Virus record (IMG/VR): IMGVR_UViG_2851938318_000001
Length of the DNA: 64,000 nt
DNA from: a virus
Lineage: Duplodnaviria; Heunggongvirae; Uroviricota; Caudoviricetes
Reading direction: 5' to 3' (one strand)
Numbering within the stretch: the stretch's first letter is position 1; every line of letters begins with the position of its first letter. The position numbers and the translations under genes were made by a program. This document shows, in pieces, positions 160 through 46,350 of the stretch. The notes under the pieces were generated by a model. That model was not told where the DNA came from. It ran no database searches and worked only from the letters and a program-made list of their open reading frames with translations.

Positions 160-573
160 TTAATGAGCTACAGCCTCACTGTTGCACATCTTTCTGTAGA
201 CCTGCTTATAACGCTGTAAATCATGAGGATCATTAGGTGCCAACGACTTCGATAGGATTTTGTATACCACCCCTTTTGAAAACATGCCCTTTGGCTTCAT
301 TTCGAGTTCAACAACATATGAGTGATAGCCCACGTATGCACCAAAGCCATTTTTGGCGTTTAATTCACCACACACAAAGCCTGTCACACTCCCATCATCA
401 TGATCAGTCCTGACAAACTTATCTTTCCTAAACATCACCGACGTGGGATCTTTCATATCATCCGCAATTGCCTGTTGGCCCAGAGTAATAGCCTTCTCGT
501 CTGTAGGCTTACACCCAACTAATGCAAACAAAGACAATAAAGCACCTGTTAAAATCAACTTCTTTTTGCTCAT
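160..573 (-). CDS. putative lipoprotein, unknown function
   Basis: 137 aa; N-terminal signal peptide with lipobox LVGC; segment FVCGELNAKNGFGAYVGY resembles MVCGEVNGKNVLNAYTGA in the 45550..46350 lipoprotein. Confidence 0.5.
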   Translation of the reverse strand: MSKKKLILTGALLSLFALVGCKPTDEKAITLGQQAIADDMKDPTSVMFRKDKFVRTDHDDGSVTGFVCGELNAKNGFGAYVGYHSYVVELEMKPKGMFSKGVVYKILSKSLAPNDPHDLQRYKQVYRKMCNSEAVAH

Positions 574-803
574 TTTGACTTCCCTTTATTTATATTTATC
601 GTAGGTATTAGTTAACCAAAACACGAGCCGTGTCACAATAATTCCATAGCTCATTATCTCTATCGGTGATTAATATCACATCAACTTTACAGTCCATAAA
701 TTAAATTATCAAAGCTGACAGATTAACTAAATTTAAGTACCCTTTTCGCACGCTTGACGCTTGCCGCGTCTAAACTATTCATCCCATATCAACAGAAAAA
801 AAC

Positions 804-1949
804 ATGAAATACATAAAACCTTCATCGTTGCTGGCATTAACTTTGCTTTTTAGCTCTGGATTCGTTAACGCAGACAATAAACAAACGCTGATAGAAGCCG
901 CTAACGCAGGTGATACCGCAGCACAAAGTGAGTTAGGGACAAATTATTTGGATGGTGTCAATGGTTTTGATAAGGATGTAGTTGAGGCCAAGAAGTGGAT
1001 TGATCTCGCTGCAGAAAAGGGAGATAAAGTAGCATATTATGCACTTGGAGTTATGTACACATTTGGCGAGGGTGTAGATAAAGACCTAAATAAAGCTGTT
1101 GAGTACTACAAACTTGCGGGGGATGCTCGTGAAGGTAGAGCCTACAACAATCTTGGTGCTATTTATCAAAAGGGGATGCTTGGTAAAGTAGATCATGCAC
1201 TCGCCATTAAATACTTCAAACTAGCCTCTGATGCCGGGTATGTTAAAGCAACTTCAGTTCTTGGGGCGTATTACCAATATGGTAAAGGCGTTCAAAAGAA
1301 TTATAAAAAGGCTTTTACTTATTACAAAAAGGCGGCAGACCAAGGCAGTTCAGAAGCTATGATAGGATTAGGAATACTATACGATGATGGGTTAGGCGTT
1401 AAACGCAATGATGCAGAAGCAGTTAAGTGGTATAAAAAGGCAGCGGAACTTGGAAACGCCGACGCCATAACCAATCTTGGCATTATGTATGAGAATGGGG
1501 AAGGAGTAAAAAAGGACTATAAAAAAGCAGCCGACCTTTATCAGACTGCTTGCAATAAAGGAGAAAAAAGAGGCTGTGAATACATTACTGAACTGAAAGA
1601 AAGCGGAAAATATCGAGTATCTGATTCCAAAGCCAAATCAAAATCAGATGTACAGCGACTTATTGCTAAATCCATTGATAAAGGCGTTAACGCAACTTTT
1701 ACCTGGCAAGGTGATGACGCCACATTCACCGCTAATGGCGGCAAAATTGACTGCACTTTCCTAAAGGATTTTTCAGAGAAAGGAGGCAATCTGGCTACCT
1801 CGTTTGTTTGCACCGATAACGTTCAAATCATCCTGAAGCAATTCAGAGATACCAAGAATGCCTACCTCGCGGTAATGACTGACAACTTCAACACAGAAGT
1901 TAAATCATTTTCGGTCAATGTTTACGTGACTAATACTGGTTCAAACTAA
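804..1949 (+). CDS. secreted Sel1-like repeat (TPR-like) protein
   Basis: 381 aa; hydrophobic N-terminal signal sequence; several tandem ~36-aa repeats with the A-x-x-W-Y-x-K-A-A-x-x-G pattern followed by G-x-x-Y-x-x-G-x-G-V. Confidence 0.7.
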   Translation: MKYIKPSSLLALTLLFSSGFVNADNKQTLIEAANAGDTAAQSELGTNYLDGVNGFDKDVVEAKKWIDLAAEKGDKVAYYALGVMYTFGEGVDKDLNKAVEYYKLAGDAREGRAYNNLGAIYQKGMLGKVDHALAIKYFKLASDAGYVKATSVLGAYYQYGKGVQKNYKKAFTYYKKAADQGSSEAMIGLGILYDDGLGVKRNDAEAVKWYKKAAELGNADAITNLGIMYENGEGVKKDYKKAADLYQTACNKGEKRGCEYITELKESGKYRVSDSKAKSKSDVQRLIAKSIDKGVNATFTWQGDDATFTANGGKIDCTFLKDFSEKGGNLATSFVCTDNVQIILKQFRDTKNAYLAVMTDNFNTEVKSFSVNVYVTNTGSN

Positions 1950-3194
1950 TGCTGCTATGCCTTTTACCTTGCTTAAAAGTTCAAGCTGTCGTGAGTAAGG
2001 TTTTGCGCAATAGTAGGCTTTGATAATCTTCCCCGGTGTCGCATCGCCGGGGTCGAGTCCTTCCTCGCCCAAACACGCAACTTTGACATTAAGACCGATA
2101 CTGGTCAGTCGCCTGGCTGCGGCCATAGTGTTGCGTATAGCTTGCTTTTCACTATCCCACATCATGATCACATTACGTAACCCACGCGCCTTGAGCGTCA
2201 GGAACGCGCCTAACTGATCTTCTGCATCCTGAGTGGTGTTACCAGATAGATGCATCCCGAACGTTCCTATTGGTTCCACGTAATCACGTAATGTTTCTTC
2301 GTCAAAAATAGCTCGTTTAACCCCCATAACATCGAACGCCCCCTCACAGACAACTACAGTCTGTTTGCCGACTGCATTATGGCCGTTGTAGAGAAACTTA
2401 CCTGAAGCTGGAAGCTGCATAGGAAAGAGGTAGCGGCGTTCTGCTGTACCGGTAATGTCTCGTCCCTGAAATGTCTTCATTACCCCATCCAGATCGTAAA
2501 CCGGTATCAGTATTCGCATATCGAATATCTGCCCTTTTACCTGATCTGTATACGGATCTACATAAGCGTGCTTGCCTTCGACGCAGTATCGTAGGTCAAA
2601 ATACTTTGCCATTTCAGGTGATATGTTTCGTTCAACCAGATAGTCTGGAAGACGGCCATCTATAGGAAGCTCGTAATGACGAGGGAGTGCAACTGGCCCC
2701 TCTAACTCGACTGTGCTTGCAAGCACTAGCTCTTCTTTCTTTGGTGCCCACCCCTGGGAAAGAAGGGCGTTCTGCACATATTCCTCGAACTGTCGTCGTG
2801 ATTTGCCGCTGTAGTACTTGAGGAAGACCAGCTTATTGAACTGAATCTCTTCGGGATGATCACCAGCGAAGCATTTACCGACGCCACTGGTCAGATTGAA
2901 ATATACCTTCCAGTTGGAGCTGCCGCATACCGGACACTCCTTGATATTCACTTCACGACCGCGAGTACTCACGCCTCCACGTCGATAAACGATACCTTCA
3001 GTATCCAACCATTGTTCAAAATCTAATTCGGTAATTAGCTCTTTCAGCTCGCTCACGATAATTCCACTTTTAACAGGCAATATTGTGACCAACCTAAATG
3101 TTGATATAACATAAAGGCTCATGTGTTTTTCTTTTGTGGTTTGGCAAAAGAAAAGTTGTTTCACCAATGAATCAAGCGTGGAGGTGTTCTCCAC
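1941..3194 (-). CDS. DNA primase (zinc-ribbon + Toprim type)
   Basis: 417-aa ORF; CPVCGSSNWKVYF...GKCFAGDH zinc-binding motif; Toprim-like VVVCEGAFDVMG; directly downstream of the helicase gene. True start may be the internal Met at 3122. Confidence 0.6.
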   Translation of the reverse strand: MENTSTLDSLVKQLFFCQTTKEKHMSLYVISTFRLVTILPVKSGIIVSELKELITELDFEQWLDTEGIVYRRGGVSTRGREVNIKECPVCGSSNWKVYFNLTSGVGKCFAGDHPEEIQFNKLVFLKYYSGKSRRQFEEYVQNALLSQGWAPKKEELVLASTVELEGPVALPRHYELPIDGRLPDYLVERNISPEMAKYFDLRYCVEGKHAYVDPYTDQVKGQIFDMRILIPVYDLDGVMKTFQGRDITGTAERRYLFPMQLPASGKFLYNGHNAVGKQTVVVCEGAFDVMGVKRAIFDEETLRDYVEPIGTFGMHLSGNTTQDAEDQLGAFLTLKARGLRNVIMMWDSEKQAIRNTMAAARRLTSIGLNVKVACLGEEGLDPGDATPGKIIKAYYCAKPYSRQLELLSKVKGIAALV

Positions 3195-3203
3195 GCTTAT
3201 TTT

Positions 3204-4544
3204 TTAGGTAACGTCTAAGATTCGCTCAATGAAGCGCATTTGTTCGAGGTTTTGTTTAACGCGAATGCTGATCCCTCCCTGCTGGTTACGCGAACCAGCA
3301 AAGTAGAGACGAGCCTCTCCTTTCGCTTCTTCTTCTTCGGTTTTGTTGATCGTTATTACCAGATCAGCAATACGTACTTTTTCGATGTTGTCGGCAGCGT
3401 GCATCATTGTGGCAACTTCTGACGCGCCACCTTCACGGTTTGTTTGCGACGCCGTGATACCAGCAACGTTATGCTTGTCATAAAGAGCACGTAAATCGGT
3501 GTAGATACTACGAATGTTGGCGCGATCATCACGAAGGTCATAACTGGCACGCATCAAATCTGCGTAGTCGACAACAACCATGTCAGGCACCATACCATTG
3601 GCTTTCATACTGTTAAGCATACGGTCCAGATCTGCCGGTGACATACTTCCTGACGGACGCTCAACAACCCACAAACTACCAATCCCCTTAGAGGCTCCCA
3701 ACTCTGCCAACTTACGATGAACTTCATCGCGCCGTTCCACCAACTTGGACATTTCCGTCTCCGACAATCTTGCATCAAAACGGTCGGACAAAATGTTGGT
3801 GTGAACCTCCAGCGAGAGATACAGAACATTGTAGCCAGCAAGCGTTGCGTTTATGGAAAACTCACCCATTGCGGTCGATTTACCGGATTTAGCGAACCCC
3901 ATGAAGAGCACCATTTCGCGCTTTGCCCAGCCTTTTTGGTACAGCAACCTATCGAGAAGAGGGAGTCCAGTTGTAATACTGTTTGGTACATACTCCTCTG
4001 AAGCCTCATATTCACGCGCTTTCAATCGCTCACTTGCGGAGGTGTAGTAGTCATAGATTCCGGTCGCTTCGTTCGATCCAATCTGCTGAACCTTGGCCAT
4101 GATTGCCATCGCCCCCTGAAAGTCGCCCTTCTCTTTCAGTTCAGCAGCCTTAATCAGAGCATCATCAAACGCTACGCTTTTTGCGAAGGTTGATACCTGG
4201 TCAACCATGTACGAGGTATCGGACAATTTTTCTGCAAGGATGCGCTTAAACGCAGCAACAACATCGGCGAATAGTTCCTCACGGATAGTCTTATCGCGTT
4301 TCGCACGCTTAAGCATATCCAGAATTGCAGATGAAGAGGGCGCGCTCTTGTACATACGGTAATAGCCCGAAACCATATTAACCAATATGGCATTGGCCGC
4401 ATTGGCAAATTGGCTAGGCACAACCAGATCTCCCGCACGAGTAAGAAACTCGTGATCACGACAAAAATATGCCGTCAGTCTGTTCTGGAAATCTTCATCA
4501 AACTCTTCGGACAGCCCGCGTCCTGTATGGCAAAGTTCGGTCAT
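3204..4544 (-). CDS. DnaB-family replicative DNA helicase
   Basis: 446 aa; Walker A GFAKSGKST, Walker B-like MVVVDYADL; N-terminal helical domain plus RecA-like C-terminal domain. Confidence 0.75.
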   Translation of the reverse strand: MTELCHTGRGLSEEFDEDFQNRLTAYFCRDHEFLTRAGDLVVPSQFANAANAILVNMVSGYYRMYKSAPSSSAILDMLKRAKRDKTIREELFADVVAAFKRILAEKLSDTSYMVDQVSTFAKSVAFDDALIKAAELKEKGDFQGAMAIMAKVQQIGSNEATGIYDYYTSASERLKAREYEASEEYVPNSITTGLPLLDRLLYQKGWAKREMVLFMGFAKSGKSTAMGEFSINATLAGYNVLYLSLEVHTNILSDRFDARLSETEMSKLVERRDEVHRKLAELGASKGIGSLWVVERPSGSMSPADLDRMLNSMKANGMVPDMVVVDYADLMRASYDLRDDRANIRSIYTDLRALYDKHNVAGITASQTNREGGASEVATMMHAADNIEKVRIADLVITINKTEEEEAKGEARLYFAGSRNQQGGISIRVKQNLEQMRFIERILDVT

Positions 4545-4587
4545 GTGCTTTCCTTTGTTTTTTAAACAAATTGTTTTCTAGTATTAG

Positions 4588-5337
4588 TTAATTAGATAGG
4601 GGATCAATAAACCGCCGTGCTTCTTCCAGTTCTTCTGGAAAGTGGGCGGAAATAAGGCGCTCTGGAACGATTTCCATTAGCCAGATAGCGGAGAAAATTG
4701 CGCGTATGCGCTTGCTGCGAGGGATGGTGCGCAAACGCTCCAGAATCCACTCAAAATAGCTTTCCTGAATCGGGTTGAACTGCATGTCTCCCATATGCTT
4801 AAAGCTAACAAGAGAGTCATCCAGACGGGTTGTTGCGCGTCTGGCTAATTTCTCTTCAAATATCTCAATCAGTTCTGGCTGCCACAAATGCTGTGGGCGC
4901 GGCAGCTTGTCCCACAGCCGTCGTGCAGCTGCGGAAAGAACGGTGGAGATAAAGTAGTCGTATGAGCAGCAATAGCGATCCGCAAACTGGCGTGCTTTCC
5001 ATAGCGACGTTTTATTGGCAGTCGACAACTCCTGATAAGGCAGGCGTTTTAACCCGGTGGTGAACGGAGCTGTTTCAAAGTGTTCGCGACCGTGCGTCAG
5101 CATGATATTTGAGTACTGACGTTTGTATGCCTCCGTAAAAAGACAGGTGGCCATGAGAGGATGCATGTCGCGGTAATCAAACCACTTCGTCTCGAAGAGT
5201 TCAGCCTCGTCTTTACAGCGCGACAAACCAATGTTTTCAGCGACCCACTTGTCCATAACAGCGGTATTCCACTCTGTCATGAAGTCGTACTGGTCGTTGT
5301 CGATGGTATCGAAAAAGATTTGGCTCATGTGGCTCAC
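4588..5337 (-). CDS. hypothetical protein of the replication module (possible initiator or helicase loader)
   Basis: 249-aa ORF immediately upstream of and co-oriented with the helicase gene; no recognisable motif. Confidence 0.4.
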   Translation of the reverse strand: MSHMSQIFFDTIDNDQYDFMTEWNTAVMDKWVAENIGLSRCKDEAELFETKWFDYRDMHPLMATCLFTEAYKRQYSNIMLTHGREHFETAPFTTGLKRLPYQELSTANKTSLWKARQFADRYCCSYDYFISTVLSAAARRLWDKLPRPQHLWQPELIEIFEEKLARRATTRLDDSLVSFKHMGDMQFNPIQESYFEWILERLRTIPRSKRIRAIFSAIWLMEIVPERLISAHFPEELEEARRFIDPLSN

Positions 5338-5444
5338 CTGGTAGGTAGTTACTTACTTATCACAATGAGCGGATGATAGCGACTGGTGGCAGTTTTTGGA
5401 AGTGGAAACGGAAGGGAGTTGTTCTGGTGGTGTCTTTTAAAAGA

Positions 5445-5499
5445 CCTGCTTCCGTATATATTTAATAAGTTACTTATTATTTATATATACAGAAGCAGG
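5445..5499. repeat. 55-bp near-perfect palindrome, copy 1 of 2
   Basis: cctgcttccgtatatatttaataagttacttattatttatatatacagaagcagg; arms contain CTGTATATAT-like half sites; centre carries the TAAGTTACTTATT motif. Confidence 0.8.
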
Positions 5500-5610
5500 C
5501 ATAACTTGTCGTCTTAGACGCCCAGAAGCTCTACACTTTGAGCCTGTTAAATTGATTAAAAACTTATGTGTAAAATAGAACGCATTAGTCAGTAGCTAAG
5601 AGATGCAATA

Positions 5611-6378
5611 ATGGACGATTTATCGGTATACGCGAGATCATTGGATAAGGCTAAATACTATGTTTACTGTCTCTATGATACAGAAGACAAGATGAAAAGA
5701 CCGTTTTACATAGGAAAAGGCAAATCGACTCGTTGTCTCGATCACATCAAGTATCCCGATGACTCTCCCAAATCCATGCGGATCAAAGAACTTTTGGCTA
5801 ATAAAAAATTAGGCATAGATATTCTTCGTCATGGTATGGATGAAACCACAGCCAAACTTGTTGAGGCGACATGCATCGACCTTATGGGGGTCGGAGAGCT
5901 TACGAATAAGGTACGAGGAAGTGGTTCCATGATGGGCAGAATATCACTGGACGCCTACCATCACTTAGTGCTGCAAGAGGAAACTGAAATTGCTCCTGAG
6001 CACGCCGGTCTTGCCTTCCTGCTAAACAGCACCTACAAGTCAGGAATGTCCGCTCTGGCATTATATGAAGCTACGCGTGGCGTATGGGCAAAGGTTCCAA
6101 GAGACGAGAATCTCAAATATGCCTACGCTACATATGGTGGGCTAATAATGGAAGTTTATCAGATTGAATGCTGGGTCAAAGCCGGTTCTCAGCAGTACTT
6201 TACAAGGGATATAGCTCTTGGCCCCGACACAAAACGTTATGAATTTGTTGGCAGAATAGCCGATGAGCATATTAGAAAACTGTATGTAGGCAAATTAATC
6301 AAGAAGCCACCAAGCTACGGTAGCCCTTTTGTGAAGGTTGGGGTGGTTAGGACTGAACATAGTGTTAGCGCGGCATAA
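5611..6378 (+). CDS. GIY-YIG domain nuclease, possible free-standing homing endonuclease
   Basis: 255 aa; N-terminus YVYCLYD...FYIGKGKSTRCLDH fits the GIY-(10-13)-YIG...R...H pattern; lone plus-strand gene between replication and partition modules. Confidence 0.55.
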   Translation: MDDLSVYARSLDKAKYYVYCLYDTEDKMKRPFYIGKGKSTRCLDHIKYPDDSPKSMRIKELLANKKLGIDILRHGMDETTAKLVEATCIDLMGVGELTNKVRGSGSMMGRISLDAYHHLVLQEETEIAPEHAGLAFLLNSTYKSGMSALALYEATRGVWAKVPRDENLKYAYATYGGLIMEVYQIECWVKAGSQQYFTRDIALGPDTKRYEFVGRIADEHIRKLYVGKLIKKPPSYGSPFVKVGVVRTEHSVSAA

Positions 6379-7458: not shown

Positions 7459-7633
7459 TGGAGAGTTCCCTTTGCGTATATAATTATCGTCTGAAACAAC
7501 TTGTTTTCTTATATGTGATATAGCCTAAATGCCTACGGCTGCGGTGTAAAGGTTAAATGGTAGGTTGTGATTAACAATTTGAACCGCCCCGGAAATCCTG
7601 GAGACTAAACTCCCTGAGAAAGAGGTAAACAGG

Positions 7634-7960
7634 ATGACTAAAAATACTCGTTTTTCCCCCGAAGTCCGTCAGCGGGCGATTCGTATGGTTCTGGAAAGTC
7701 AGGATGAATATGACTCACAGTGGGCGGCAATTTGTTCCATTGCCCCAAAGATTGGCTGTACGCCGGAGACTCTGCGTGTCTGGGTTCGCCAGCATGAGCG
7801 GGATACCGGGGGCGGTGATGGTGGGCTCACCAGCGCTGAACGTCAGCGTCTGAAAGAGCTGGAACGTGAAAATCGTGAACTGCGCCGCAGTAACGATATC
7901 CTTCGCCAGGCTTCCGCTTATTTTGCGAAGGCGGAGTTCGACCGCCTCTGGAAAAAATGA
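7634..7960 (+). CDS. IS3-family transposase OrfA (HTH)
   Basis: 108 aa; A-run at the orfA/orfB overlap consistent with -1 frameshifting. Confidence 0.85.
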
Positions 7961-8847
7961 TGCCACTGCTGGATAAGCTGCGTGAGCAGTACGGGGTCGG
8001 ACCGGTATGCAGCGAACTGCATATTGCCCCGTCAACGTATTACCATTGTCAGCAACAGCGACATCATCCGGATAAACGCAGTGCCCGTGCGCAGCACGAC
8101 GACTGGCTGAAGAGAGAGATACAGCGCGTATACGATGAAAATCATCAGGTGTACGGTGTGCGTAAAGTCTGGCGTCAGTTGTTACGGGAAGGAATCAGGG
8201 TGGCCAGATGTACAGTGGCACGTCTCATGGCGGTTATGGGACTTGCCGGTGTTCTCCGGGGTAAAAAGGTCCGTACGACCATCAGCCGGAAAGCCGTTGC
8301 CGCAGGCGACCGCGTAAACCGTCAGTTCGTGGCAGAACGACCTGACCAGCTGTGGGTGGCTGATTTTACTTACGTCAGCACATGGCAGGGCTTCGTCTAT
8401 GTGGCGTTTATCATTGATGTGTTTGCCGGATACATCGTGGGGTGGCGGGTCTCATCGTCTATGGAAACGACATTCGTGCTGGATGCGCTGGAGCAGGCGT
8501 TGTGGGCCCGTCGTCCGTCTGGCACCATCCATCACAGCGATAAAGGCTCTCAGTATGTGTCACTGGCCTATACGGAGCGACTAAAAGAAGCCGGATTACT
8601 GGCATCAACAGGGAGTACAGGCGACTCGTATGACAACGCGATGGCTGAGAGCATCAATGGTCTTTACAAAGCGGAGGTAATACACCGTAAGAGCTGGAAA
8701 AACCGTGCAGAAGTGGAACTGGCCACACTAACGTGGGTGGACTGGTATAACAATCGACGATTGCTGGGAAGGCTGGGCCATACTCCTCCGGCAGAAGCAG
8801 AAAAAGCTTATTATGCTTCCATCGGAAACGATGATCTGGCAGCCTGA
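7957..8847 (+). CDS. IS3-family transposase OrfB (DDE catalytic domain)
   Basis: 296-aa ORF in the -1 frame relative to OrfA. Confidence 0.85.
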
Positions 8848-9089
8848 GTTCACAGATAAAACACTCTCCAGGAAACCCGGGGCGGTTCAATTGGCAATCA
8901 TAGCTTGTATTTGTCTGTTGAAAAAAGTAACAATGACCTCTATATTACAAGTACGGTGATATGCCGTACACAATTTGATAATGCACACGTAATGGGCTAT
9001 AGCCTTTTAAAGTAATTTTTGAGTCGAAAACTCAGTTTGAACAGAGGAGATTGATGGCCTTCCTACATCACGGCCATCAGGAGGAATAC

Positions 9090-9359
9090 ATGTCAGCACT
9101 AAAAAAGCAGCGCATCGATTTGAGATTAACCGATGACGATAAAAGCATCATCGAGGAAGCTGCCGCAATGTCTAACCAGAGCATTACTCAGTTTATGGTT
9201 AGCAGTGCATCTGAACGTGCCGTGAAAGTTATAGAGCAACACCGTAGACTAGTTCTGAATGAAGAATCCTGGAATCTGGTTATGGACGCTATAAGCAATC
9301 CTCCGGCACCGAACGACAAGCTGAAACGAGCTGCTGATCGTCTGAAAAGCATGGAGTAG
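9090..9359 (+). CDS. DUF1778-type antitoxin (TacA-like)
   Basis: Start chosen at ATG 9090 preceded by AGGAGG; about 89 aa; immediately upstream of the GNAT toxin gene. Confidence 0.65.
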   Translation: MSALKKQRIDLRLTDDDKSIIEEAAAMSNQSITQFMVSSASERAVKVIEQHRRLVLNEESWNLVMDAISNPPAPNDKLKRAADRLKSME

Positions 9360-9366
9360 TTTACTC

Positions 9367-9888
9367 GTGAGCAATACAACGATAGAGATTTTCTCTGGAG
9401 AGAAAGATTATGATCTAAACGGTTTTGATTGCGGCGAAGAGTCACTAAACGCCTTTTTAGCCAACCACTTAAAAAGGCAGCATGAGGGAAAAATTCTTCG
9501 TGCTTATGTGCTTTGCACTCAAGAAGAAAGGCCAAAAGTGTTAGGATATTACACTTTGTCAGGTAGTTGTTTTGAAAAGGAGTCCTTACCTTCAAGAAGC
9601 AAACAAAAGAAGGTTCCTTATCGGAATGTTCCAAGTGTTACTTTGGGTAGGCTGGCTTTGGACAAGCCCCTTCAAGGTCAAGGATTTGGCTCAATGCTTG
9701 TAACACATGCAATGCGCGTTGTGTACAATGCATCTCTTGCTGTAGGCATTCATGGACTTTTCGTTGAGGCGTTAAATGACAAAGCCAAGGCGTTTTATAA
9801 AAGTTTAGGCTTTATCCAGCTGGTTGGTAACAACGAGCGTTCTTTGTTCTATCCTACAAAATCTATCGAAAAATTGTTCGAAGAATAA
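9367..9888 (+). CDS. GNAT-family acetyltransferase toxin (TacT-like)
   Basis: 173 aa; acyl-CoA-binding motif QGQGFGSMLV; GTG start 8 nt after antitoxin stop. Confidence 0.65.
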   Translation: MSNTTIEIFSGEKDYDLNGFDCGEESLNAFLANHLKRQHEGKILRAYVLCTQEERPKVLGYYTLSGSCFEKESLPSRSKQKKVPYRNVPSVTLGRLALDKPLQGQGFGSMLVTHAMRVVYNASLAVGIHGLFVEALNDKAKAFYKSLGFIQLVGNNERSLFYPTKSIEKLFEE

Positions 9889-19530: not shown

Positions 19531-19572
19531 TGAACCGCCCCGGGTTTCCTGGAGAGTGTTTTATCTGTGAAC

Positions 19573-20463
19573 TCAGGCTGCCAGATCATCGTTTCCGATG
19601 GAAGCATAATAAGCTTTTTCTGCTTCTGCCGGAGGAGTATGGCCCAGCCTTCCCAGCAATCGTCGATTGTTATACCAGTCCACCCACGTTAGTGTGGCCA
19701 GTTCCACTTCTGCACGGTTTTTCCAGCTCTTACGGTGTATTACCTCCGCTTTGTAAAGACCATTGATGCTCTCAGCCATCGCGTTGTCATACGAGTCGCC
19801 TGTACTCCCTGTTGATGCCAGTAATCCGGCTTCTTTTAGTCGCTCCGTATAGGCCAGTGACACATACTGAGAGCCTTTATCGCTGTGATGGATGGTGCCA
19901 GACGGACGACGGGCCCACAACGCCTGCTCCAGCGCATCCAGCACGAATGTCGTTTCCATAGACGATGAGACCCGCCACCCCACGATGTATCCGGCAAACA
20001 CATCAATGATAAACGCCACATAGACGAAGCCCTGCCATGTGCTGACGTAAGTAAAATCAGCCACCCACAGCTGGTCAGGTCGTTCTGCCACGAACTGACG
20101 GTTTACGCGGTCGCCTGCGGCAACGGCTTTCCGGCTGATGGTCGTACGGACCTTTTTACCCCGGAGAACACCGGCAAGTCCCATAACCGCCATGAGACGT
20201 GCCACTGTACATCTGGCCACCCTGATTCCTTCCCGTAACAACTGACGCCAGACTTTACGCACACCGTACACCTGATGATTTTCATCGTATACGCGCTGTA
20301 TCTCTCTCTTCAGCCAGTCGTCGTGCTGCGCACGGGCACTGCGTTTATCCGGATGATGTCGCTGTTGCTGACAATGGTAATACGTTGACGGGGCAATATG
20401 CAGTTCGCTGCATACCGGTCCGACCCCGTACTGCTCACGCAGCTTATCCAGCAGTGGCATCAT
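19573..20463 (-). CDS. IS3-family transposase OrfB
   Basis: 296-aa ORF identical to the copy-1 OrfB. Confidence 0.85.
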
Positions 20464-20786
20464 TTTTTCCAGAGGCGGTCGAACTCCGCCTTCGCAAAAT
20501 AAGCGGAAGCCTGGCGAAGGATATCGTTACTGCGGCGCAGTTCACGATTTTCACGTTCCAGCTCTTTCAGACGCTGACGTTCAGCGCTGGTGAGCCCACC
20601 ATCACCGCCCCCGGTATCCCGCTCATGCTGGCGAACCCAGACACGCAGAGTCTCCGGCGTACAGCCAATCTTTGGGGCAATGGAACAAATTGCCGCCCAC
20701 TGTGAGTCATATTCATCCTGACTTTCCAGAACCATACGAATCGCCCGCTGACGGACTTCGGGGGAAAAACGAGTATTTTTAGTCAT
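20460..20786 (-). CDS. IS3-family transposase OrfA
   Basis: 108-aa ORF identical to the copy-1 OrfA. Confidence 0.85.
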
Positions 20787-20840
20787 CCTGTTTACCTCTT
20801 TCTCAGGGAGTTTAGTCTCCAGGATTTCCGGGGCGGTTCA

Positions 20841-33937: not shown

Positions 33938-34813
33938 TTAAATTTTTACATTGGTCAGTGCAGCGATAGCCTTATCGTGCTTATTCGCCAGAGAGCAGTA
34001 CCACTTCACACGGGTACGTACTGCGTCTTTGTTCTGTACAGTACCAATGTTTTCAACAACGATACCTGCGTTGTCGCCGCCATACAGACCAGTAACGCCG
34101 TTCTCTTCTGACAGATGCAGGCAGTAGATGCTTGCTTTGCCAGAATCGGTCGGGATGAAGTCGTTGATGATGAACGGAACGCCGTTGTGACACAGCATCG
34201 GACGACCGAAGTTCTCCATCATGATTTCAGACGGACCTACGTTTACTGTACGCAGCAGCGCACGGTAAGCACGCAGGTGCTCTGAACGCATCATGATGCA
34301 GTCAGCACCAAGATCTTTCACCGCATCGACCAGTTCGTCGAACATGGAGAAAGTCATAGATGCACCTGCGATGTCGATCTTCTGATCTTCATGCATCAGG
34401 CGTGGAATACCGTCGAACGCTTTGTTGTTGGAGCTGGAGTCACCCAAAATCAGGTTGCGGCGGAACGCACGAGCCAGACCTTTAACTTTCTGACGAACCT
34501 GAATAGCCAACTGGTTATTGGTGTCGGCCATAGTGGTTGCCAGGAATTTATCAACGTCTACGTCACCAGCCAGAATACGCAGTTTCGCAACGCATTCTTC
34601 GAAGGTTGCTGCACCTTCAGGGATGGTGTCGTTAACGTCGATGAAGGTAGCTTCACTCAGCGTTTTTTCACGGTTGTACAGATATGCCTTTGAATTAATT
34701 TTCATAAAAGGCAAGATGGCAAACAGGTCATCGCGATCGATGATAGTTTCGATCACACCCTGTTCAAGTTCGTTGTTAGACAGCTTTTCAGCTTCTTCAC
34801 GCAGTAATGGCAT
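33938..34813 (-). CDS. major capsid protein
   Basis: 291 aa; position directly after the scaffold gene. Confidence 0.6.
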   Translation of the reverse strand: MPLLREEAEKLSNNELEQGVIETIIDRDDLFAILPFMKINSKAYLYNREKTLSEATFIDVNDTIPEGAATFEECVAKLRILAGDVDVDKFLATTMADTNNQLAIQVRQKVKGLARAFRRNLILGDSSSNNKAFDGIPRLMHEDQKIDIAGASMTFSMFDELVDAVKDLGADCIMMRSEHLRAYRALLRTVNVGPSEIMMENFGRPMLCHNGVPFIINDFIPTDSGKASIYCLHLSEENGVTGLYGGDNAGIVVENIGTVQNKDAVRTRVKWYCSLANKHDKAIAALTNVKI

Positions 34814-39702: not shown

Positions 39703-39711
39703 GGCAAATCC

Positions 39712-40602
39712 TTATGCCGGTAAAGCAATTTCTAACGGTTTATCCAAAGGTTGTTTGTCGAATGCCAGCAGTGGCAGCGTGTCAGGCAGTCGACGACCAA
39801 AGTCAGGGTTTCGATACACACCATACAACGGAGACGTAAAGCTCAGGTTGTGAATGTCCTTGAGCAGCTTCACAATGCTGGCCTCGTCCACCAGACTGTC
39901 GGCAATGTCCTGAATCGTCGTGCCACGATTCCGCCCAGCTTTTGCCAGGGAACTGTTCTTGTGGTAGTCCGCCACCAGATCACGCAGTGCACGGCGACGA
40001 CGTGACTCGCTCATTGCGAACAACTCTTTGACGATCGCCTCGTTATCACCCGGGTCGGAGCGGAAATGGCGCTGGAACACACGCAGTGCACTTTCATAGC
40101 TCTTCGGTCGCTCAGGGCGGATGAACTTGAACCCTGCTTTCATGGCGAAGGGATTGTATTTGCTCATCGAGGATTGGATCTCAATGATTGGCCGGTCATG
40201 CATCCTGCTAACCAGGTTAATCATTCGATAAGAGACGCCTACGCCACGGTACTGAGTATCCACAACTGAGCGGCTGATCACCGCAAAGTTGTTATTCACG
40301 TACCGGCCCCAGTACTGGTTAGCCACGGTGGTATTGGTGGTTGGTTTCAACTTAGGAAACATGCGATGGCGAGGTGCCAGCAGAAGTTTCGGGTAAGCCA
40401 TAACCACGACGCCCACCAGACGGTCATCCAGTTCGCAGCGATAGTATGTTGGCGCGAAAGGTTTGCCGTCTGTTTTGTAGTGAAGCGACTTAAGAGCGTG
40501 CCAGTCCTCTACAGTTCCCTTTGTGACAGTCATTCGCTCCAGAAAGTCCAGATGACGCGGAAACTCTTCAGGGCGGTAGCGTTTAATGATGATGTCCGTC
40601 AT
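39712..40602 (-). CDS. GNAT-like protein (putative acyltransferase fold)
   Basis: 296 aa; motif ISRSVVDTQYRGVGVSYRMINL resembles the GNAT acyl-CoA loop; start overlaps the ATPase stop by 4 nt. Confidence 0.35.
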   Translation of the reverse strand: MTDIIIKRYRPEEFPRHLDFLERMTVTKGTVEDWHALKSLHYKTDGKPFAPTYYRCELDDRLVGVVVMAYPKLLLAPRHRMFPKLKPTTNTTVANQYWGRYVNNNFAVISRSVVDTQYRGVGVSYRMINLVSRMHDRPIIEIQSSMSKYNPFAMKAGFKFIRPERPKSYESALRVFQRHFRSDPGDNEAIVKELFAMSESRRRRALRDLVADYHKNSSLAKAGRNRGTTIQDIADSLVDEASIVKLLKDIHNLSFTSPLYGVYRNPDFGRRLPDTLPLLAFDKQPLDKPLEIALPA

Positions 40603-41264
40603 GAATGGACCTCATCATAACTACCATTGTGATATTCCACCTTCACGCGTTCTTTGTAGTGCTTGGTGATCTGCATATCCGGGCGCAGCGCGTTCTTCAG
40701 GTCTTCGTGAGTCGTCGCCACCATTACCGTCGCACCAACCTTTCGAGCGGCACGCTGGAGGTTAGATGCCACAACCTGAGCGGTTACACGGTCTAGAACA
40801 GCACCGAACTCGTCAGCAGCCCACACTTTAGCGCCTGACTCAATCAGTTTGGCAATCTTGAGACGATATTTCTGACCGTCTGACATTTCAGAAGGCTTGC
40901 GAACAAACAGATATGCATCGTTCAGACCAGCCATAGATAACAACCCAAGCGCATCGCTGGTCGTTTTGCCCAACTGATCGATGACGTTAACCTCATTATC
41001 GAAGGTAAAATCATCGATGGAGGCTACAGACAGCCCTTCATCCTTCATCTGGCGTTGCAGCTCGCGCAACACAACGGATTTACCTGAACCGGATTGGCCG
41101 GTGATGTACACCACATCGCCCTGCTTCACTTCCAGCTCCAGATTGTCGTAAAGCGTCCACTCTTTTTCGTCCAGGCCAAGCCCGAACGACTCAGCGATTT
41201 CCAACGTGCGCGTGGTTTTATTTACGCGTGTCTGAAACGATACGTTGATGATGTATTTACTCAT
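40599..41264 (-). CDS. ABC-type P-loop ATPase (stand-alone)
   Basis: 221 aa; Walker A GQSGSGKS, signature-like MSDGQKYRL, Walker B VWAADEF, H-loop TTHE. Confidence 0.65.
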   Translation of the reverse strand: MSKYIINVSFQTRVNKTTRTLEIAESFGLGLDEKEWTLYDNLELEVKQGDVVYITGQSGSGKSVVLRELQRQMKDEGLSVASIDDFTFDNEVNVIDQLGKTTSDALGLLSMAGLNDAYLFVRKPSEMSDGQKYRLKIAKLIESGAKVWAADEFGAVLDRVTAQVVASNLQRAARKVGATVMVATTHEDLKNALRPDMQITKHYKERVKVEYHNGSYDEVHS

Positions 41265-41929
41265 GCAGCCATCTCCCCGGAAGAGATCTTCTCCGCATAT
41301 GCCACAAATGCGTCTACCCCGCTTTCTCCCGTCATTTCTTCCATATGGGCAAGCAAATCACCAACAACAATGGCAGAGCCAGCAGGGAGCGTTTTAAAGC
41401 CCAATACGTCGACAACACGTACTTCTTCCGCTGCAACTTCACGACTGATCTCGGTGTGTTCATCCTTCTGTCGTTTAGTTTCTTCGCCAAGATCGATAAC
41501 TAGCGAGTCGGTGTCCATTTCTTCTGTCATACTGCCAACGAGAACATTCAACTCACGCTCTTCAAAGCCGAAAACCTCGATATCGTCCAGAACAAGCGAC
41601 TCAAGCTCTTTCTGTAGCTTAATTGCATCGTAATCAATGCTGGCAAGTCGGTTATCTTCAAGGCGCTTCGCACGAACCTCGTCATCACTGAGATCATCGC
41701 GAACAATAACCGGTACGCGCTCAAGTCCAGCAAAAATTGCAGCCTCACGGCGGCCGTGGCCAGTAATAATTACGTCGTTCTTATCGACCGTAATTGGCTG
41801 GTCAAATCCGCGCTTTTTAATGGCTGCGGCCAGATCTCGGATCTGCTGTTCATCATGCTTTTTGGCATTCATCTCATAGGGAATAAGATCTGCCGGGTCG
41901 CGATATACGATTTCAAACTTTTTGGTCAT
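41261..41929 (-). CDS. ParB/Srx-domain protein 1
   Basis: ParB box-II-like ITGHGRREAAIFAG; start taken at Met 41929, sharing one nt with the upstream stop. Confidence 0.65.
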   Translation of the reverse strand: MTKKFEIVYRDPADLIPYEMNAKKHDEQQIRDLAAAIKKRGFDQPITVDKNDVIITGHGRREAAIFAGLERVPVIVRDDLSDDEVRAKRLEDNRLASIDYDAIKLQKELESLVLDDIEVFGFEERELNVLVGSMTEEMDTDSLVIDLGEETKRQKDEHTEISREVAAEEVRVVDVLGFKTLPAGSAIVVGDLLAHMEEMTGESGVDAFVAYAEKISSGEMAA

Positions 41930-42627
41930 TACATACGCTCCTTGTAGTAGTCGACCAGCCACACCAGAGCCTCACCAGCGTTCTCCATTTCATTACCGGT
42001 GTTAATAGCCTGCTCTTTGATGATGTTTTTTATGGTTTCTGCAACACGATCTGACGCATCGAAAGTTACTTTGAAGCGCATGGTCTGATGTTCCGCCCCC
42101 ACACGTTCGGTTTTCTCTCGTTTGTCGGTATCGACAGGCTCATCACTACCACGAGACAACGCCTCCAGTGCTTCAAGGTCGATTGCCGCCTCTTTTGCTA
42201 AAACCATCGAGATTTCGTCGTCATACGGGGCGATTTCAGACAGTTGATAGTCAAGTTCTGACTGAATTTCTTCAATGAAGCGTTGCAATGCGATTTGGTC
42301 GTCTTCACCGTATCGCTCGTTGTCCACCAGTGACATCTGTTTAGCTACGACATCGCTAATTTTGCCCACAGAAAGCACCGGAACCGTTGAAATTCCTTGC
42401 TCAATAGCAGCACGCCAGCGATGTTCGCCGCCGAGGATTTCAAAAAATCCATCTTCAAGTTCACGAGCCAAAATTGGCTTAAAAAAGCCCAATTTTTCGA
42501 TAGAACCTTTCAGTTTTTCAAAATTCTGCGCACCAACCGAATTGGTGTTCCAGGTATTCGGGCGAAGGTTGGCAACATCAACCTGCAAAATCGTGATTTT
42601 TACATCCATTTTATTGCTACAATCCAC
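41929..42627 (-). CDS. ParB/Srx-domain protein 2
   Basis: 232 aa; ParB box-II-like ILGGEHRWRAAIEQGI; first gene of the operon; phage palindromic motif at 42627..42648. Confidence 0.65.
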   Translation of the reverse strand: MDCSNKMDVKITILQVDVANLRPNTWNTNSVGAQNFEKLKGSIEKLGFFKPILARELEDGFFEILGGEHRWRAAIEQGISTVPVLSVGKISDVVAKQMSLVDNERYGEDDQIALQRFIEEIQSELDYQLSEIAPYDDEISMVLAKEAAIDLEALEALSRGSDEPVDTDKREKTERVGAEHQTMRFKVTFDASDRVAETIKNIIKEQAINTGNEMENAGEALVWLVDYYKERM

Positions 42628-42691
42628 TAAGTAATTACTTACTTATTATAATAGCCAAATAACATACAAAAGGCACTAAGGAAAGAGGTTT

Positions 42692-44251
42692 ATGACTGTT
42701 CGGATTGTATCTAACGCAGTAAATGCGCTTATTTCTGGCGCAGATGACAAGGTAAAGCAACTGGTGCAGCAAATGTTGAGCTACGAAGTCGAGACTGGCG
42801 ACTGGAAGGGCACAAGCACGATGTTCAACTGGAGTAAAAACTCGTTCCCTGCTGGCTTTGCCAAGCCTGTAGCAGCGAACTTGAACAAGGCGGGCATCAA
42901 ATGTGTTCATATCCGCAAAGACAAAGCCCCGGCGCTTGGTAAACCAAATCCGGCGGTTAACCCATTCCCATACAATCCTGATTATGCGTATCAGGATCAG
43001 ACTGTGGAAACACTGGTTCGAGAGGGAATGATGATTGCGCAGATCGCTACTGGTGGCGGGAAATCTAATGTTGCCTGCAAAGCAGCTGCACGTATCGGTC
43101 GAATGACATTATTTTTAACAACCCGCTCTGTTCTGATGTTTCAGATGGCCGAAAACTTCCAGAGATCCATCGACTACCGCGCCGAAAATGGCGAACCGTG
43201 GTTAAAAGACCAAAAGGTTGGAGTAATTGGCTCGGGTGAGTTCCAGGTATCACGACATATCAACGTCGCTACAGTTCAAACTCTTGCAAGTTTCCTTGAA
43301 GAACCACCACGCGATGCAACTCCAGATAAGAAAAGCTACCACCTCAAACGTCGGGAGTTGGTGAAACGCTTCCTTTCAAGTGTCTCTCTTCTTATTCTGG
43401 AAGAGGCGCATGAGTCTTCAGGCTCTAATTTCTATGACATTGCCAGATTATGTGCGAACGCAGACTATCGCCTGGCGCTTACGGCAACGCCGTTCATGAA
43501 GGATTCTACGGAAGCCAACATGCGTCTGATGGCTGTAGCCGGGCGAATTGAAATAAAAGTCACGGAAAAGTACCTGATTGATAGAGGAATTCTGGCAAAG
43601 CCATACTTCCTTTATCATAAAGTTGCCTACAAACCGGACGAGGTCAGAATCAAGGCAGAACTTGCTAACAAACACCTCAATTTTAGAGTAGGTATGAGCA
43701 CTGCCTACCAAAAGGCTTATCAGTTGGGGATCGTGTATAATTTGGGACGTAACGAGGCCATTGTGCGCGAAGCATTGCTCTATAAGCAACACTCTCTCAA
43801 CTGCATGACTCTGGTTCGTCTTAAACGCCACGGGCAAATCCTGATGGAGATGATGAAGGAGTCCGGTCTTAGAGTTGACTTCATCTATGGGGAATCGAAC
43901 CAGGCGACAAGGCAAGCAAAGCTGAACAGTTTAGCGTCTGGTGAAATAGATGTTTTAATAGGCTCGACTATTCTGGATGTCGGTGTTGATGTGCCAAGCG
44001 TTGGTGCGGTCATTCTTGCTGGTGGCGGGAAAGCAGAAGTTGAAATGAGACAACGTGTCGGTCGTGGCTTACGAGCCAAGAAGAATCAGGCAAACGTGTG
44101 TTTTATCACTGATTTCATTGACATTAGCAACAAATACCTGTTGTCTCACTCTTATGAGCGAAAACACATCATCGACACTACACCTGGCTTTGCAGAAGGT
44201 GTATTGCCAATTGATGGCACATTCGATTTTGGAGTTCTGAAACGAGATTAG
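42692..44251 (+). CDS. SF2 DEAD/DEAH-box family helicase
   Basis: 519 aa; motif I TGGGKS, motif II LEEAHE, motif III LTATP, motif VI QRVGRGLR; ATG preceded by AAGAGG. Confidence 0.75.
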   Translation: MTVRIVSNAVNALISGADDKVKQLVQQMLSYEVETGDWKGTSTMFNWSKNSFPAGFAKPVAANLNKAGIKCVHIRKDKAPALGKPNPAVNPFPYNPDYAYQDQTVETLVREGMMIAQIATGGGKSNVACKAAARIGRMTLFLTTRSVLMFQMAENFQRSIDYRAENGEPWLKDQKVGVIGSGEFQVSRHINVATVQTLASFLEEPPRDATPDKKSYHLKRRELVKRFLSSVSLLILEEAHESSGSNFYDIARLCANADYRLALTATPFMKDSTEANMRLMAVAGRIEIKVTEKYLIDRGILAKPYFLYHKVAYKPDEVRIKAELANKHLNFRVGMSTAYQKAYQLGIVYNLGRNEAIVREALLYKQHSLNCMTLVRLKRHGQILMEMMKESGLRVDFIYGESNQATRQAKLNSLASGEIDVLIGSTILDVGVDVPSVGAVILAGGGKAEVEMRQRVGRGLRAKKNQANVCFITDFIDISNKYLLSHSYERKHIIDTTPGFAEGVLPIDGTFDFGVLKRD

Positions 44252-44253
44252 TT

Positions 44254-44532
44254 ATGAGCGAAAAGAAAACAACTTATTGCCAAGTGGCATTGTCTGATAA
44301 AGCCAATGAAAAACTTGGAAAATTTCAAATAAAACTCAAAGAGAAAAAAATCAAGATGTCTAAGGCTGAAGTTATCAATGCCATTCTGGAGACGATGACT
44401 ATGGCTGAATTTGACAAAGTCACATCTGCCGTTGGGGTTTCCGCTAAGACGCGTGAGAAAATCATGCGCATCTATGAGAACTCCAATATGACAAAAAAAG
44501 ATCTAGAGGAAATACTGAGCAGGTTGCCGTAA
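44254..44532 (+). CDS. hypothetical small protein
   Basis: 92-aa Lys-rich ORF starting 3 nt after the helicase stop. Confidence 0.4.
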   Translation: MSEKKTTYCQVALSDKANEKLGKFQIKLKEKKIKMSKAEVINAILETMTMAEFDKVTSAVGVSAKTREKIMRIYENSNMTKKDLEEILSRLP

Positions 44533-44597
44533 CATTTCATATTTACCCCCTATCTACTAAATCTATGATGTGCTCACTTGTTAGAAAGGAGCACATC

Positions 44598-45164
44598 ATG
44601 AGTTGGTTAAAAGAATTATCATTTGTTGACACCACTGGCGCTAAGAAAAATCATTCTTTCTGGAAAGTCAGCGATCCTTCTGATTTTCTTGTTGGTGCTA
44701 ATGCTGCTTTTGAATTGCTTAACTTTTATCAACGTTATCCTGAAATGAAACACAGTCCACTCCTGTACAGAATAACAAACGATATGAATAGGTCTGGTTT
44801 ATTATCAAGTGAGTCAGCGAAAGGCTTTTTTAGCAAAATTACGCCTCACATATCATTCGATGCAGCAAACGAAATTGATTATCTATCCACAAAATCTCAA
44901 GAACAATTATCTGTGCCACCTGAGAAAAAAGAAAGACGAATTGCCAGCATTGAAAATATATCGAAAGAGCTTCGCACAACAACGTTGAGGCTGCTGAACT
45001 TTCTTACGCTACTTAATTGGATAGATGATCAAACATTGATTCCATCAACCGATGCGTTGGATAACAGAGTCCTTAGGCTGAACAAAAAATCGCAATTTGG
45101 TTTTGTGTTCACCAAAAAAGGTGAAGATTTAATCAAAAGAAAATATAGATTATTGAATGATTAA
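44598..45164 (+). CDS. hypothetical protein
   Basis: ATG 44598 preceded by AAAGGAG; AT-rich codon usage. Confidence 0.4.
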   Translation: MSWLKELSFVDTTGAKKNHSFWKVSDPSDFLVGANAAFELLNFYQRYPEMKHSPLLYRITNDMNRSGLLSSESAKGFFSKITPHISFDAANEIDYLSTKSQEQLSVPPEKKERRIASIENISKELRTTTLRLLNFLTLLNWIDDQTLIPSTDALDNRVLRLNKKSQFGFVFTKKGEDLIKRKYRLLND

Positions 45165-45549
45165 TAGTCTACATGCAGGTGTATGAGAGCACCTGCATGT
45201 GACATTCATCACATTTTTGAATGTATATACCTTCGGCTGAAAAAAGATCTTGATAGGCTGAATGATATTTGTAGGCTTCGCCTCCGAAGAAATTCGGAGG
45301 ATATATGCGACAATTTATAAAAACGTGTGACCTAAGAAATATAGTAGATGATATTGCATGTGATGAAATTAGCAAAAAAGAGAAGAACAAAAACGCCAAT
45401 TAACGCTATCTACCTATAAATCTGAAGAGTTCAATAGGATACATATCTGAAACACGCCCTCGACAATACCAAAAAGATTTGTCGAGGGCGTCGGGCTTTC
45501 CCTATGTCTGAACGATTAAATTTTACAGCAATTAAATATTTTGTATATG

Positions 45550-46350
45550 TTATTCTTCTGGTGGTACGACAAAATCGTCGAGCTTATTCTTTTCGTCCCG
45601 AAGCAACCTGATTTCTTCTTCTGTTATGCATTTGTCATAATCTGTTTGTTCAGAATGGCACAGCGCAACTGCGAATGGATAGCCGGTGTAAGACAGCCCT
45701 CTAACAGGTTCTAATTCACCGTTGTCTTTTTTCCTAAATTTGTAAAAGTCAGGAGTGTCATAATTGGTGACGCTAACAAGAGCATATTTATCATTTTCTC
45801 TTGCATACACTTCACTAACACCTCTCGATTCTCCCAACTCTCTACTCACATATGTCGAATCACTTGCAGCATCAAACACAGCCTGACCTAATGGAGTTTT
45901 TTTTAAATCATCTATTTTCTCTTTTTCTTTCCTGATTTTAGATTCGTTTTCCAGATAAAGTTTCACACCATTTTCTTTACATGCTAGATTTTGGCGTTCA
46001 AAACGTAATCGTTCACTTGCCGAGTTGGTACTTTTATCCATTGTAACGAATACAATCGGGTTACGTTCACGAACATCAAAGATGTGTGCATTGAATGCGG
46101 TCGCACCTGTATAGGCGTTCAAGACGTTTTTGCCATTCACCTCTCCACATACCATATATGAATAGCTATTTTCACCTAACTGAATAGCTCGCATATTCGT
46201 GAACCGACCAGCATCAGGATCTAGCAGTGTAGAGCGAATATCCTTTTCAACTAGATTTATGACTCGCTCTTCATCAGAATCACAACCTGTTAATAGTAAA
46301 GCCGCTATTAACAATGCTAATGAGTATTTTTTATTCACCCCATTCTTCAT
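45550..46350 (-). CDS. putative lipoprotein
   Basis: 266 aa; signal peptide with lipobox LTGC; shares a domain with the 160..573 lipoprotein. Confidence 0.5.
   Translation of the reverse strand: MKNGVNKKYSLALLIAALLLTGCDSDEERVINLVEKDIRSTLLDPDAGRFTNMRAIQLGENSYSYMVCGEVNGKNVLNAYTGATAFNAHIFDVRERNPIVFVTMDKSTNSASERLRFERQNLACKENGVKLYLENESKIRKEKEKIDDLKKTPLGQAVFDAASDSTYVSRELGESRGVSEVYARENDKYALVSVTNYDTPDFYKFRKKDNGELEPVRGLSYTGYPFAVALCHSEQTDYDKCITEEEIRLLRDEKNKLDDFVVPPEE

Follow-up and report, generated by a model that had tools for sequence, protein, structure and literature searches.

Two small lipoprotein genes in a 64,000-nucleotide stretch of viral DNA, the IMG/VR record IMGVR_UViG_2851938318_000001 (Caudoviricetes), raise the question of whether their products could keep superinfecting phages out of the cell that carries them and, if so, at which step of infection. 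In what follows the whole of this stretch is called the window, and positions are those of the window unless another sequence is named. The first, short gene lies at 160..573 on the minus strand and encodes a protein of 137 amino acids (aa; WP_000038288.1), and the second, long gene lies at 45550..46350, also on the minus strand, and encodes one of 266 aa (WP_061158056.1); both are labelled 'hypothetical protein' in RefSeq. An initial annotation of the window had described the pair as paralogous lipoproteins at opposite ends of the element and as candidate exclusion factors that mask phage receptors in the outer membrane. Here we present evidence that the two proteins share a domain that defines a large lipoprotein family, and we tentatively propose that its most likely job is to exclude incoming phages after adsorption, as a periplasmic lysogenic-conversion lipoprotein stationed at the peptidoglycan layer.

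Each of the two proteins opens with a basic n-region that is followed by a hydrophobic core and then a lipobox, and the LVGC and LTGC lipoprotein signal peptides reported earlier for these two open reading frames (ORFs) are present as described. The short protein consists of a signal peptide with its lipobox (511..573, minus strand; MSKKKLILTGALLSLFALVG up to C21, read from the sequence as ..ALVG/C21), in which the Cys is followed by Lys at position +2, and a single copy of the family domain. The lipobox of the long protein (MKNGVNKKYSLALLIAALLLTG up to the Cys, ..LLTG/C23) has D24 at +2, and Asp at this position is an inner-membrane retention signal in Enterobacteriaceae. From these features both proteins are predicted to be exported and lipid-anchored, facing the periplasm. 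By the Enterobacteriaceae +2 rule the short protein is predicted to be sorted to the outer membrane, and the difference between Lys in the short and Asp in the long protein predicts that the two reside in different membranes.

The segments that had been singled out as conserved between the pair, FVCGELNAKNGFGAYVGY and MVCGEVNGKNVLNAYTGATAF, were both found in the two proteins, and the similarity extends to a common domain: in a pairwise BLASTP comparison the proteins align with E=1e-8 and 29% identity over 68 aa, both match phrog_2320 (E=1.9e-39 for the short and 1.3e-19 for the long protein), and the same domain is seen in both AlphaFold models. The long protein is also a full-length member of phrog_20234 (E=9.6e-186). 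Since neither phrog_2320 nor phrog_20234 carries a functional annotation, membership in them names the family and explains nothing about it. When all six-frame ORFs of the source plasmid were searched with a hidden Markov model (HMM) of the domain, exactly these two genes were recovered. The model of the short protein has a predicted local distance difference test (pLDDT) score of 83 and comprises a helix (residues 25-37), four strands (47-57, 63-74, 80-94 and 102-111) and a second helix (116-130). The model of the long protein (pLDDT 82.7) has the same layout in its family domain (45976..46281, minus strand; approximately aa 24-125), in which C68 and C124 are invariant across the long subfamily. 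In both models the shared domain, with its helix, four antiparallel strands and helix, lies mostly above a pLDDT of 90.

Judged from these models, the shared domain of about 100 aa has a cystatin/NTF2-like fold. The cystatin, NTF2-like and VirB8-like folds likewise place a helix against a curved sheet of antiparallel strands, but the likeness is one of fold only, with 4-14% identity, and the signature and the Cys pair of our family are missing from those families. A Foldseek search of the PDB retrieved nothing at E<=0.001, a sequence search of the PDB with the proteins gave no match, and a structure search of BFVD led only to uncharacterised phage lipoproteins. Neither the inhibitory motifs of the cystatins (the QxVxG hairpin and the PW loop) nor sequence homology to cystatins could be read in either protein; as the helix-on-sheet fold is a generic one and these motifs are lacking, the family is not filed under the cystatins. 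An equation of the conserved hairpin of the family with the inhibitory hairpin of cystatins was considered and dropped, because the strand order does not correspond.

What kind of element carries the pair? The window corresponds to positions 34546..98546 of pRM9131-1, in reverse complement and with 99.998% identity, and the short gene is 100% identical to 97974..98387 of that plasmid. The plasmid pRM9131-1 is a circular, 117,123-bp IncFIB plasmid from the bovine Escherichia coli strain RM9131, of which the window makes up 55%. Its record encodes RepA/IncFIB and partition functions alongside terminase, portal, capsid, tape-measure and tail genes, and the element is therefore an SSU5-like phage-plasmid; it is collinear with the phages Cyrano, PhiR41_1 and CMS-2020a at 97-98% identity, and about 80% identical to Salmonella phage SSU5. 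Being circular, such an element has no ends, and in place of two genes at its opposite ends we find two genes 45 kb apart in separate accessory islands. The GC content is 0.399 in the island with the short gene (1-2000) and 0.377-0.393 in that with the long gene (44001-48000), as against 0.45-0.50 elsewhere and 0.46-0.50 for the backbone. Across 5,426 complete E. coli genomes, where a plasmid was counted as related if it had the same terminase (238 plasmids), the short gene is found at full length on 55 and the long gene on 38 of the related plasmids, and neither is ever chromosomal. Both genes thus deviate in base composition from their surroundings and are patchily present among close relatives, two of the features expected of a moron. 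We infer that both proteins are lysogenic-conversion cargo and belong to neither the replication nor the virion genes.

The description of the pair as paralogous holds for the ancestry of the shared domain, but each protein is far closer to genes in other elements than to its partner. Over 95% of its length, the short protein shares 48% identity with the product of a gene that lies between ogr and int in the P2-like Salmonella phages SEN4 and SEN5, an Ogr/Delta gene being the immediate neighbour in at least three family loci, and it is 49-54% identical to genes of Yokenella, Kosakonia, Enterobacter and Trabulsiella, Enterobacterales whose prophages have such relatives beside ogr. Full-length relatives of the long protein were found only on enterobacterial contigs of roughly 100 kb. 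Both genes occur together on 2 of the 238 plasmids, against 8.8 expected if they were independent (hypergeometric P=0.002), which could reflect lineage structure or functional redundancy. Local duplication within the element was rejected as the origin of the pair, given the closer relatives of each protein elsewhere and a co-occurrence below expectation. Instead, these comparisons indicate that the two genes are independently acquired, variable cargo and not a recent duplicate pair.

A profile built from both subfamilies and searched against 1.84 billion representative proteins recovered 8,110 cluster representatives at E<=0.001, of which 441 are found at E<=1e-10. Nearly all of the matches involve profile positions 1 to about 90, and the matched proteins are mostly 100-150 aa long. 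In an alignment of 50 diverse members the near-invariant features are the lipobox Cys, a DPxSxxF motif after the first helix, a VCGxVNxKNxxGxYxG motif that runs across the second and third strands, and a Cys close to the C-terminus; D42, P43, F48, V67, C68, G69, N72, K74, N75, Y80, G82 and C130 are each either unchanged throughout or conserved to 90% or more (alignments A1 and A3). The Cys of the VCG motif and the near-C-terminal Cys probably form a disulfide in the periplasm. None of the curated models in Pfam, NCBIfam and PADLOC covers the domain, the only hits being noise at the level of the signal peptide, and the public names of ten family clusters are 'hypothetical protein' or 'SPOR domain-containing protein'. 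In a scan of one genome per species, 320 loci were confirmed, the best 80 of which span Alpha-, Beta- and Gammaproteobacteria; members also occur in free-living soil and water Proteobacteria, and one is encoded on a small Rep3 plasmid (another, P0020, comes from a metagenome contig too short for gene context). C-terminal to the domain, fusions to SPOR (4 cases) and to a bacterial SH3 domain (SH3b) were observed, and in the phages Pkon1 and Ab105-2phi the region after the domain is annotated as peptidoglycan-binding (PG_binding_1). As three unrelated types of cell-wall-binding module have been fused to it, the domain is likely to work next to peptidoglycan. Separately, we observed paired family genes in Pseudomonas silvicola (7956..8624 and 9204..9842 of locus L081) and tandem double domains within single proteins (P0072 and P0121); such adjacent or tandem copies suggest a domain that may function as a dimer or act on targets that are themselves repeated.

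These features of the family bear on the mechanism that had been suggested for the pair, the masking of receptors. In such a model a lipoprotein of the outer membrane would attach to a phage receptor protein from the periplasmic side and inactivate it, which is how Cor and T5 Llp deal with FhuA. Both proteins are indeed small phage-borne lipoproteins, the Lys at +2 of the short protein predicts sorting to the outer membrane, and precedents exist in Cor, Llp and the mEp Lpp proteins (PMC3594210; PMC11893012). However, the long protein has Asp at +2, and among the 133 of 161 sampled family proteins that have a lipobox the +2 residue is mixed (G in 29, K in 28 and D in 21). Mixed +2 residues imply a job that tolerates either anchor, and such a job is easier to reconcile with a target in the periplasm or cell wall than with the inward side of a single receptor in the outer membrane. 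The fusion partners are likewise peptidoglycan-binding and none is an outer-membrane module, and conservation of the domain core extends from the Alpha- to the Gammaproteobacteria, unlike that of receptors. Moreover, SSU5 adsorbs to the lipopolysaccharide (LPS) core, which a periplasmic lipoprotein could not mask (PMC4138488).

Comparison with the known exclusion lipoproteins points the same way. The Cor profile phrog_1119 reaches only residues 8-26 of the long protein, within its signal peptide, at E=0.31, and does not match the short protein; PADLOC has no homolog of either; and searches of the PHROGs and the PDB yielded no Llp-like family and no sequence or structural similarity to T5 Llp. 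The mEp lipoproteins Lpp021 and Lpp010 are not homologous to the pair, as the signal peptide alone aligns, and they (mEpimmI, PMC11893012) were accordingly rejected as tested homologs, the domain HMM covering only their residues 1-28. Thus, Cor (of phi80, N15 and HK022) and Llp, which confer exclusion by inactivating FhuA, resemble the present proteins in being small lipoproteins that are encoded by phages and face the periplasm, but they are outer-membrane proteins specific for one receptor, whereas this family has mixed sorting signals, a core shared across classes and fusions to cell-wall-binding modules. We therefore regard receptor masking as very unlikely and as less likely than exclusion after adsorption, and the mechanism offered initially is probably wrong in detail.

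The genomic surroundings of the relatives are overwhelmingly those of phages, the family being for the most part borne by prophages. In a scan of the two immediate neighbours of 75 family loci against Pfam and the PHROGs, the commonest neighbours are tape-measure families (at most 13 members of one PHROG; Pfam TMP_2 with 8, Tape_meas_lam_C with 7 and TMP_3 with 4). Other frequent neighbours are lambda K-type NlpC/P60+JAB proteins (4), Mor (4) and Ogr/Delta (3), and CI-type helix-turn-helix and S24 repressors, integrases and tail chaperones were also found. A co-oriented ORF of 777 aa or more starts 21-96 nt downstream of the family gene in 13 of the best 80 loci, and in 2 further loci the family gene comes just after such an ORF. 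The order chaperone, family gene, tape measure was confirmed in Pseudomonas, Enterobacter and Brevundimonas prophages, that is, in three unrelated lineages, and in coliphage LMessi and Pseudomonas phage AUS531phi the family gene is located between the tail genes K and I. The slot between chaperone and tape measure is the origin of the term 'moron', and it houses gene 15 of HK97, whose product excludes superinfecting phages at genome entry (PMC3594210).

How, then, might the pair act? In the post-adsorption exclusion that we favour, the anchored domain would act in the periplasm at the peptidoglycan layer and would hinder a step that follows adsorption of the incoming phage, be it the passage of the tail tip or tape measure through the wall or a wall-degrading activity, such that superinfecting phages would be excluded without any masking of surface receptors. 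The long protein has, in addition, a C-terminal extension (45553..45975, minus strand; approximately aa 126-266) of two long helices followed by a beta-rich domain, which is confined to relatives on SSU5-type phage-plasmids, is matched only by P0008, P0014 and P0018, and gave zero matches in Pfam and PDB searches. This domain, specific to one plasmid type, may provide a second contact or address a different target. The part of the earlier proposal that names the pair as candidate exclusion factors is a reasonable one, because they are phage-borne envelope lipoproteins encoded by variable, low-GC genes, the ortholog of one of them is transcribed (see below) and their relatives occupy moron slots, including that of HK97 gp15; it is the masking of receptors that finds no support.

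Several known systems offer models for such a block. HK97 gp15 is likewise an envelope protein expressed from the prophage, many relatives of the pair occupy exactly its slot, and its mode of action, in which genome entry is blocked and the receptor left untouched, is the one favoured here. However, gp15, which is small and located in the inner membrane, belongs to the YebO family, is no lipoprotein and has no relation to the present family in sequence or fold, and the two genes of the window lie outside the tail operon. The prophage lipoprotein Ltp of Streptococcus phage TP-J34 blocks DNA injection and is reported to target the tape-measure protein (PMC3952083). In function it comes nearest to the post-adsorption block proposed here, but is a Gram-positive surface lipoprotein unrelated in sequence. 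Its fold consists of helical repeats. A model for a block at the peptidoglycan layer itself is T4 Sp (spackle), which resides in the periplasm and shuts out superinfecting phage through inhibition of the tail lysozyme at the cell wall. Sp differs in not being a lipoprotein, is not among the PHROG matches of the two proteins, and probably has a fold different from that of the family domain. Two further identities were tried and rejected, that of an o-spanin (Rz1-like; phrog_6073 and phrog_1267 match only residues 7-57, at E=0.025-0.27, with no lysis cassette around the genes) and that of the plasmid entry-exclusion protein EexN (NF033894 at E=0.17 and 11.9 bits against a cut-off of 33, over residues 4-24 only).

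The location next to peptidoglycan would also suit a periplasmic inhibitor or immunity protein directed against wall-degrading enzymes that do not come from phages, such as amidase or muramidase effectors of type VI secretion, host lysozyme or the autolysins of the cell itself, with a competitive or survival benefit to the carrier. The cystatin-like fold is a common inhibitor scaffold, the domain has repeatedly been fused to SPOR, SH3b and PG_binding_1, its conserved core motif suggests a conserved target, and the ortholog of the long gene in Cyrano is induced in macrophages and in Dulbecco's modified Eagle medium (DMEM). Yet neither type VI nor lysozyme nor autolysin genes are among the 25 commonest neighbour families of the 75 loci, which are overwhelmingly of phage origin. 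The QxVxG and PW motifs were not seen in the two sequences, and PDB searches revealed no similarity to a known lysozyme inhibitor or type VI immunity protein. We consider such a role unlikely.

Evidence on expression comes from published RNA sequencing of Cyrano, where the ortholog of the long gene is CYRAN_115 ('putative membrane lipoprotein'; 97.5% DNA identity); all values are from S1 Table of PMC9928086. In overnight lysogeny broth (LB), CYRAN_115 has 28.6 normalised counts against a plasmid median of 9.8, that is, 2.9-fold above background. In DMEM and in THP1 macrophages it reaches log2 values of 7.9-9.4, or 9-23 times the LB value, and is among the highest on the plasmid, whereas the replication, partition and hypothetical genes of Cyrano that are listed alongside it in the table are near background. 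Thus, in Cyrano the ortholog of the long gene is transcribed from the resident plasmid, at a level that depends on the condition. The gene divergent from CYRAN_115, the FljA-like CYRAN_114, shows the same rise in DMEM and macrophages. Its counterpart in the window is a full-length gene for an FljA-like repressor of phase-1 flagellin (46453..46974, plus strand; Pfam PF03614, E=5e-81), which is separated from the divergent long gene by 102 bp (46351..46452), presumably a common control region. A plasmid-borne flagellin repressor of this kind could alter motility, immune recognition or flagellum-dependent phage sensitivity.

These expression data also speak to the view that the genes are cargo for host adaptation or virulence apart from phage defence, through envelope stabilisation, survival in serum or macrophages (as for lambda Bor) or a partnership with the FljA-like repressor. 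In favour of it, the transcripts of CYRAN_115 and the divergent CYRAN_114 increase jointly in DMEM and in macrophages, a secreted Sel1-repeat protein is encoded beside the short gene, and the tail gene J of this plasmid copy is split by an insertion sequence (IS), so that the cargo may be retained for the benefit of the host. However, the presence of the family in free-living soil and water Proteobacteria argues against a role specific to animal hosts, Sel1 and FljA are absent from the common neighbours of the 75 family loci, and the preference of the family for a slot in tail operons would be left unexplained; we hold this view to be quite unlikely. A functional link of the family to the Sel1 protein or the FljA-like repressor was rejected, as neither is a common neighbour family-wide.

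The slot in the tail operon raises another alternative, a helper in the lytic cycle that is made late together with the tail genes and stops progeny from attaching again to debris, as T5 Llp does in its second role, or modulates wall breakdown at lysis. Many relatives lie co-oriented within tail operons, only 21-96 nt away from the tape-measure gene. In this plasmid, however, both genes lie outside the late operons, and CYRAN_115 is transcribed while the other Cyrano genes listed alongside it are near background. Lysis genes are not among the common neighbour families of the 75 loci, and spanin profiles reach the signal peptide only. A lytic helper is on this evidence highly improbable.

A number of observations also weigh against exclusion after adsorption. 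Literature searches found no paper or experiment on the family, and for this reason exclusion stays a hypothesis; PADLOC matches neither protein. The slot argument is one of guilt by association, the two genes of the window themselves lie outside the tail and late operons, and the fusions to cell-wall-binding modules tell where the domain works, not what it does. A core motif conserved over three proteobacterial classes suits a conserved host target at least as well as a fast-evolving phage protein. In LB, CYRAN_115 falls under the 5-fold cut-off for morons that was used by the authors of the RNA study (PMC9928086), and the rise of its transcript in DMEM and in macrophages might instead speak for a role in host interaction. 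In a consensus promoter scan of the window, promoter-like sites were not above their frequency in shuffled sequence, and none falls in the 102 bp between the long gene and the FljA-like gene.

Among the remaining features of the window, the gene for the secreted Sel1-repeat protein (804..1949, plus strand; Pfam Sel1, E=1e-52) is divergent from the short gene and encodes six repeats and a non-repeat C-terminal domain of about 110 aa. Together with the short gene it forms one low-GC island (1 to about 1966; GC 0.40), which is present on about 52 plasmids and missing from Cyrano, PhiR41_1 and CMS-2020a, whose matches begin at 1966/1999. The neighbours of the short gene are a primase and the Sel1 protein, and those of the long gene are the FljA-like repressor and hypothetical genes. 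A hairpin just past the stop codon of the short gene (117..154, minus strand; -21.3 kcal/mol for a 61-nt stretch, z = -3.4) is a possible terminator with a poor U-tract. A GC-rich hairpin about 60 nt past the stop codon of the long gene (45455..45490, minus strand; -26.2 kcal/mol, z = -4.8) is likewise a possible terminator with a weak U-tract; its long loop made a consensus terminator scan miss it.

The tail host-specificity gene J is split by a 1,310-bp copy of IS1203/IS629 at 19531..20840 (a further copy lies at 7573..8893). In phage Cyrano (17591..19278, 99.5% identity) the two flanks of this insertion adjoin each other, and the plasmid has seven copies of IS1203/IS629; with J split and seven such copies present, this copy of the phage-plasmid probably does not produce infectious virions. 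A GNAT-toxin/DUF1778-antitoxin pair adjoins an IS1203 copy at 9051..9888 (plus strand; 88659..89457 of pRM9131-1), and its counterparts in Cyrano, by annotation a KacT-type toxin and a putative antitoxin (CYRAN_26/27), are among the most expressed morons of that plasmid. The window also has housekeeping-like genes, by annotation a methionyl-tRNA synthetase (55097..57259, minus strand) and ApbC (57288..58388, plus strand), and outside the window pRM9131-1 carries dnaE, nrdB, thyA, folA and cspG, an unusual cargo for a temperate phage.

The value of these observations lies less in this gene pair than in the family that it exposes, which is large, nameless in Pfam and NCBIfam and 'hypothetical' almost everywhere, yet is found where lambda-like and HK97-like tails have their best-known exclusion slot. 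A bolder formulation, which we regard as doubtful, is that the domain represents a new and very widespread class of periplasmic anti-phage lipoproteins, in which a cystatin-like, disulfide-stapled module, anchored to the membrane or to peptidoglycan, halts at the cell wall either the complex of tail tip and tape measure or the wall-degrading activity of that complex. It would then be a Gram-negative counterpart of Ltp and Spackle and a moron in thousands of prophages, phage-plasmids and small plasmids. As both genes are short and easily cloned, the question is directly testable. Prophage genes that are added on and alter the envelope decide which phages can infect a lysogen, which bears on phage therapy and on how phage-plasmids, frequent carriers of resistance genes, spread. 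If the family does block entry at the peptidoglycan, it would be a common and overlooked defence, and would offer a small protein with which to study how siphophage tails cross the periplasm; if it has another role at the cell wall, it would still be a frequent lysogenic-conversion function worth defining.

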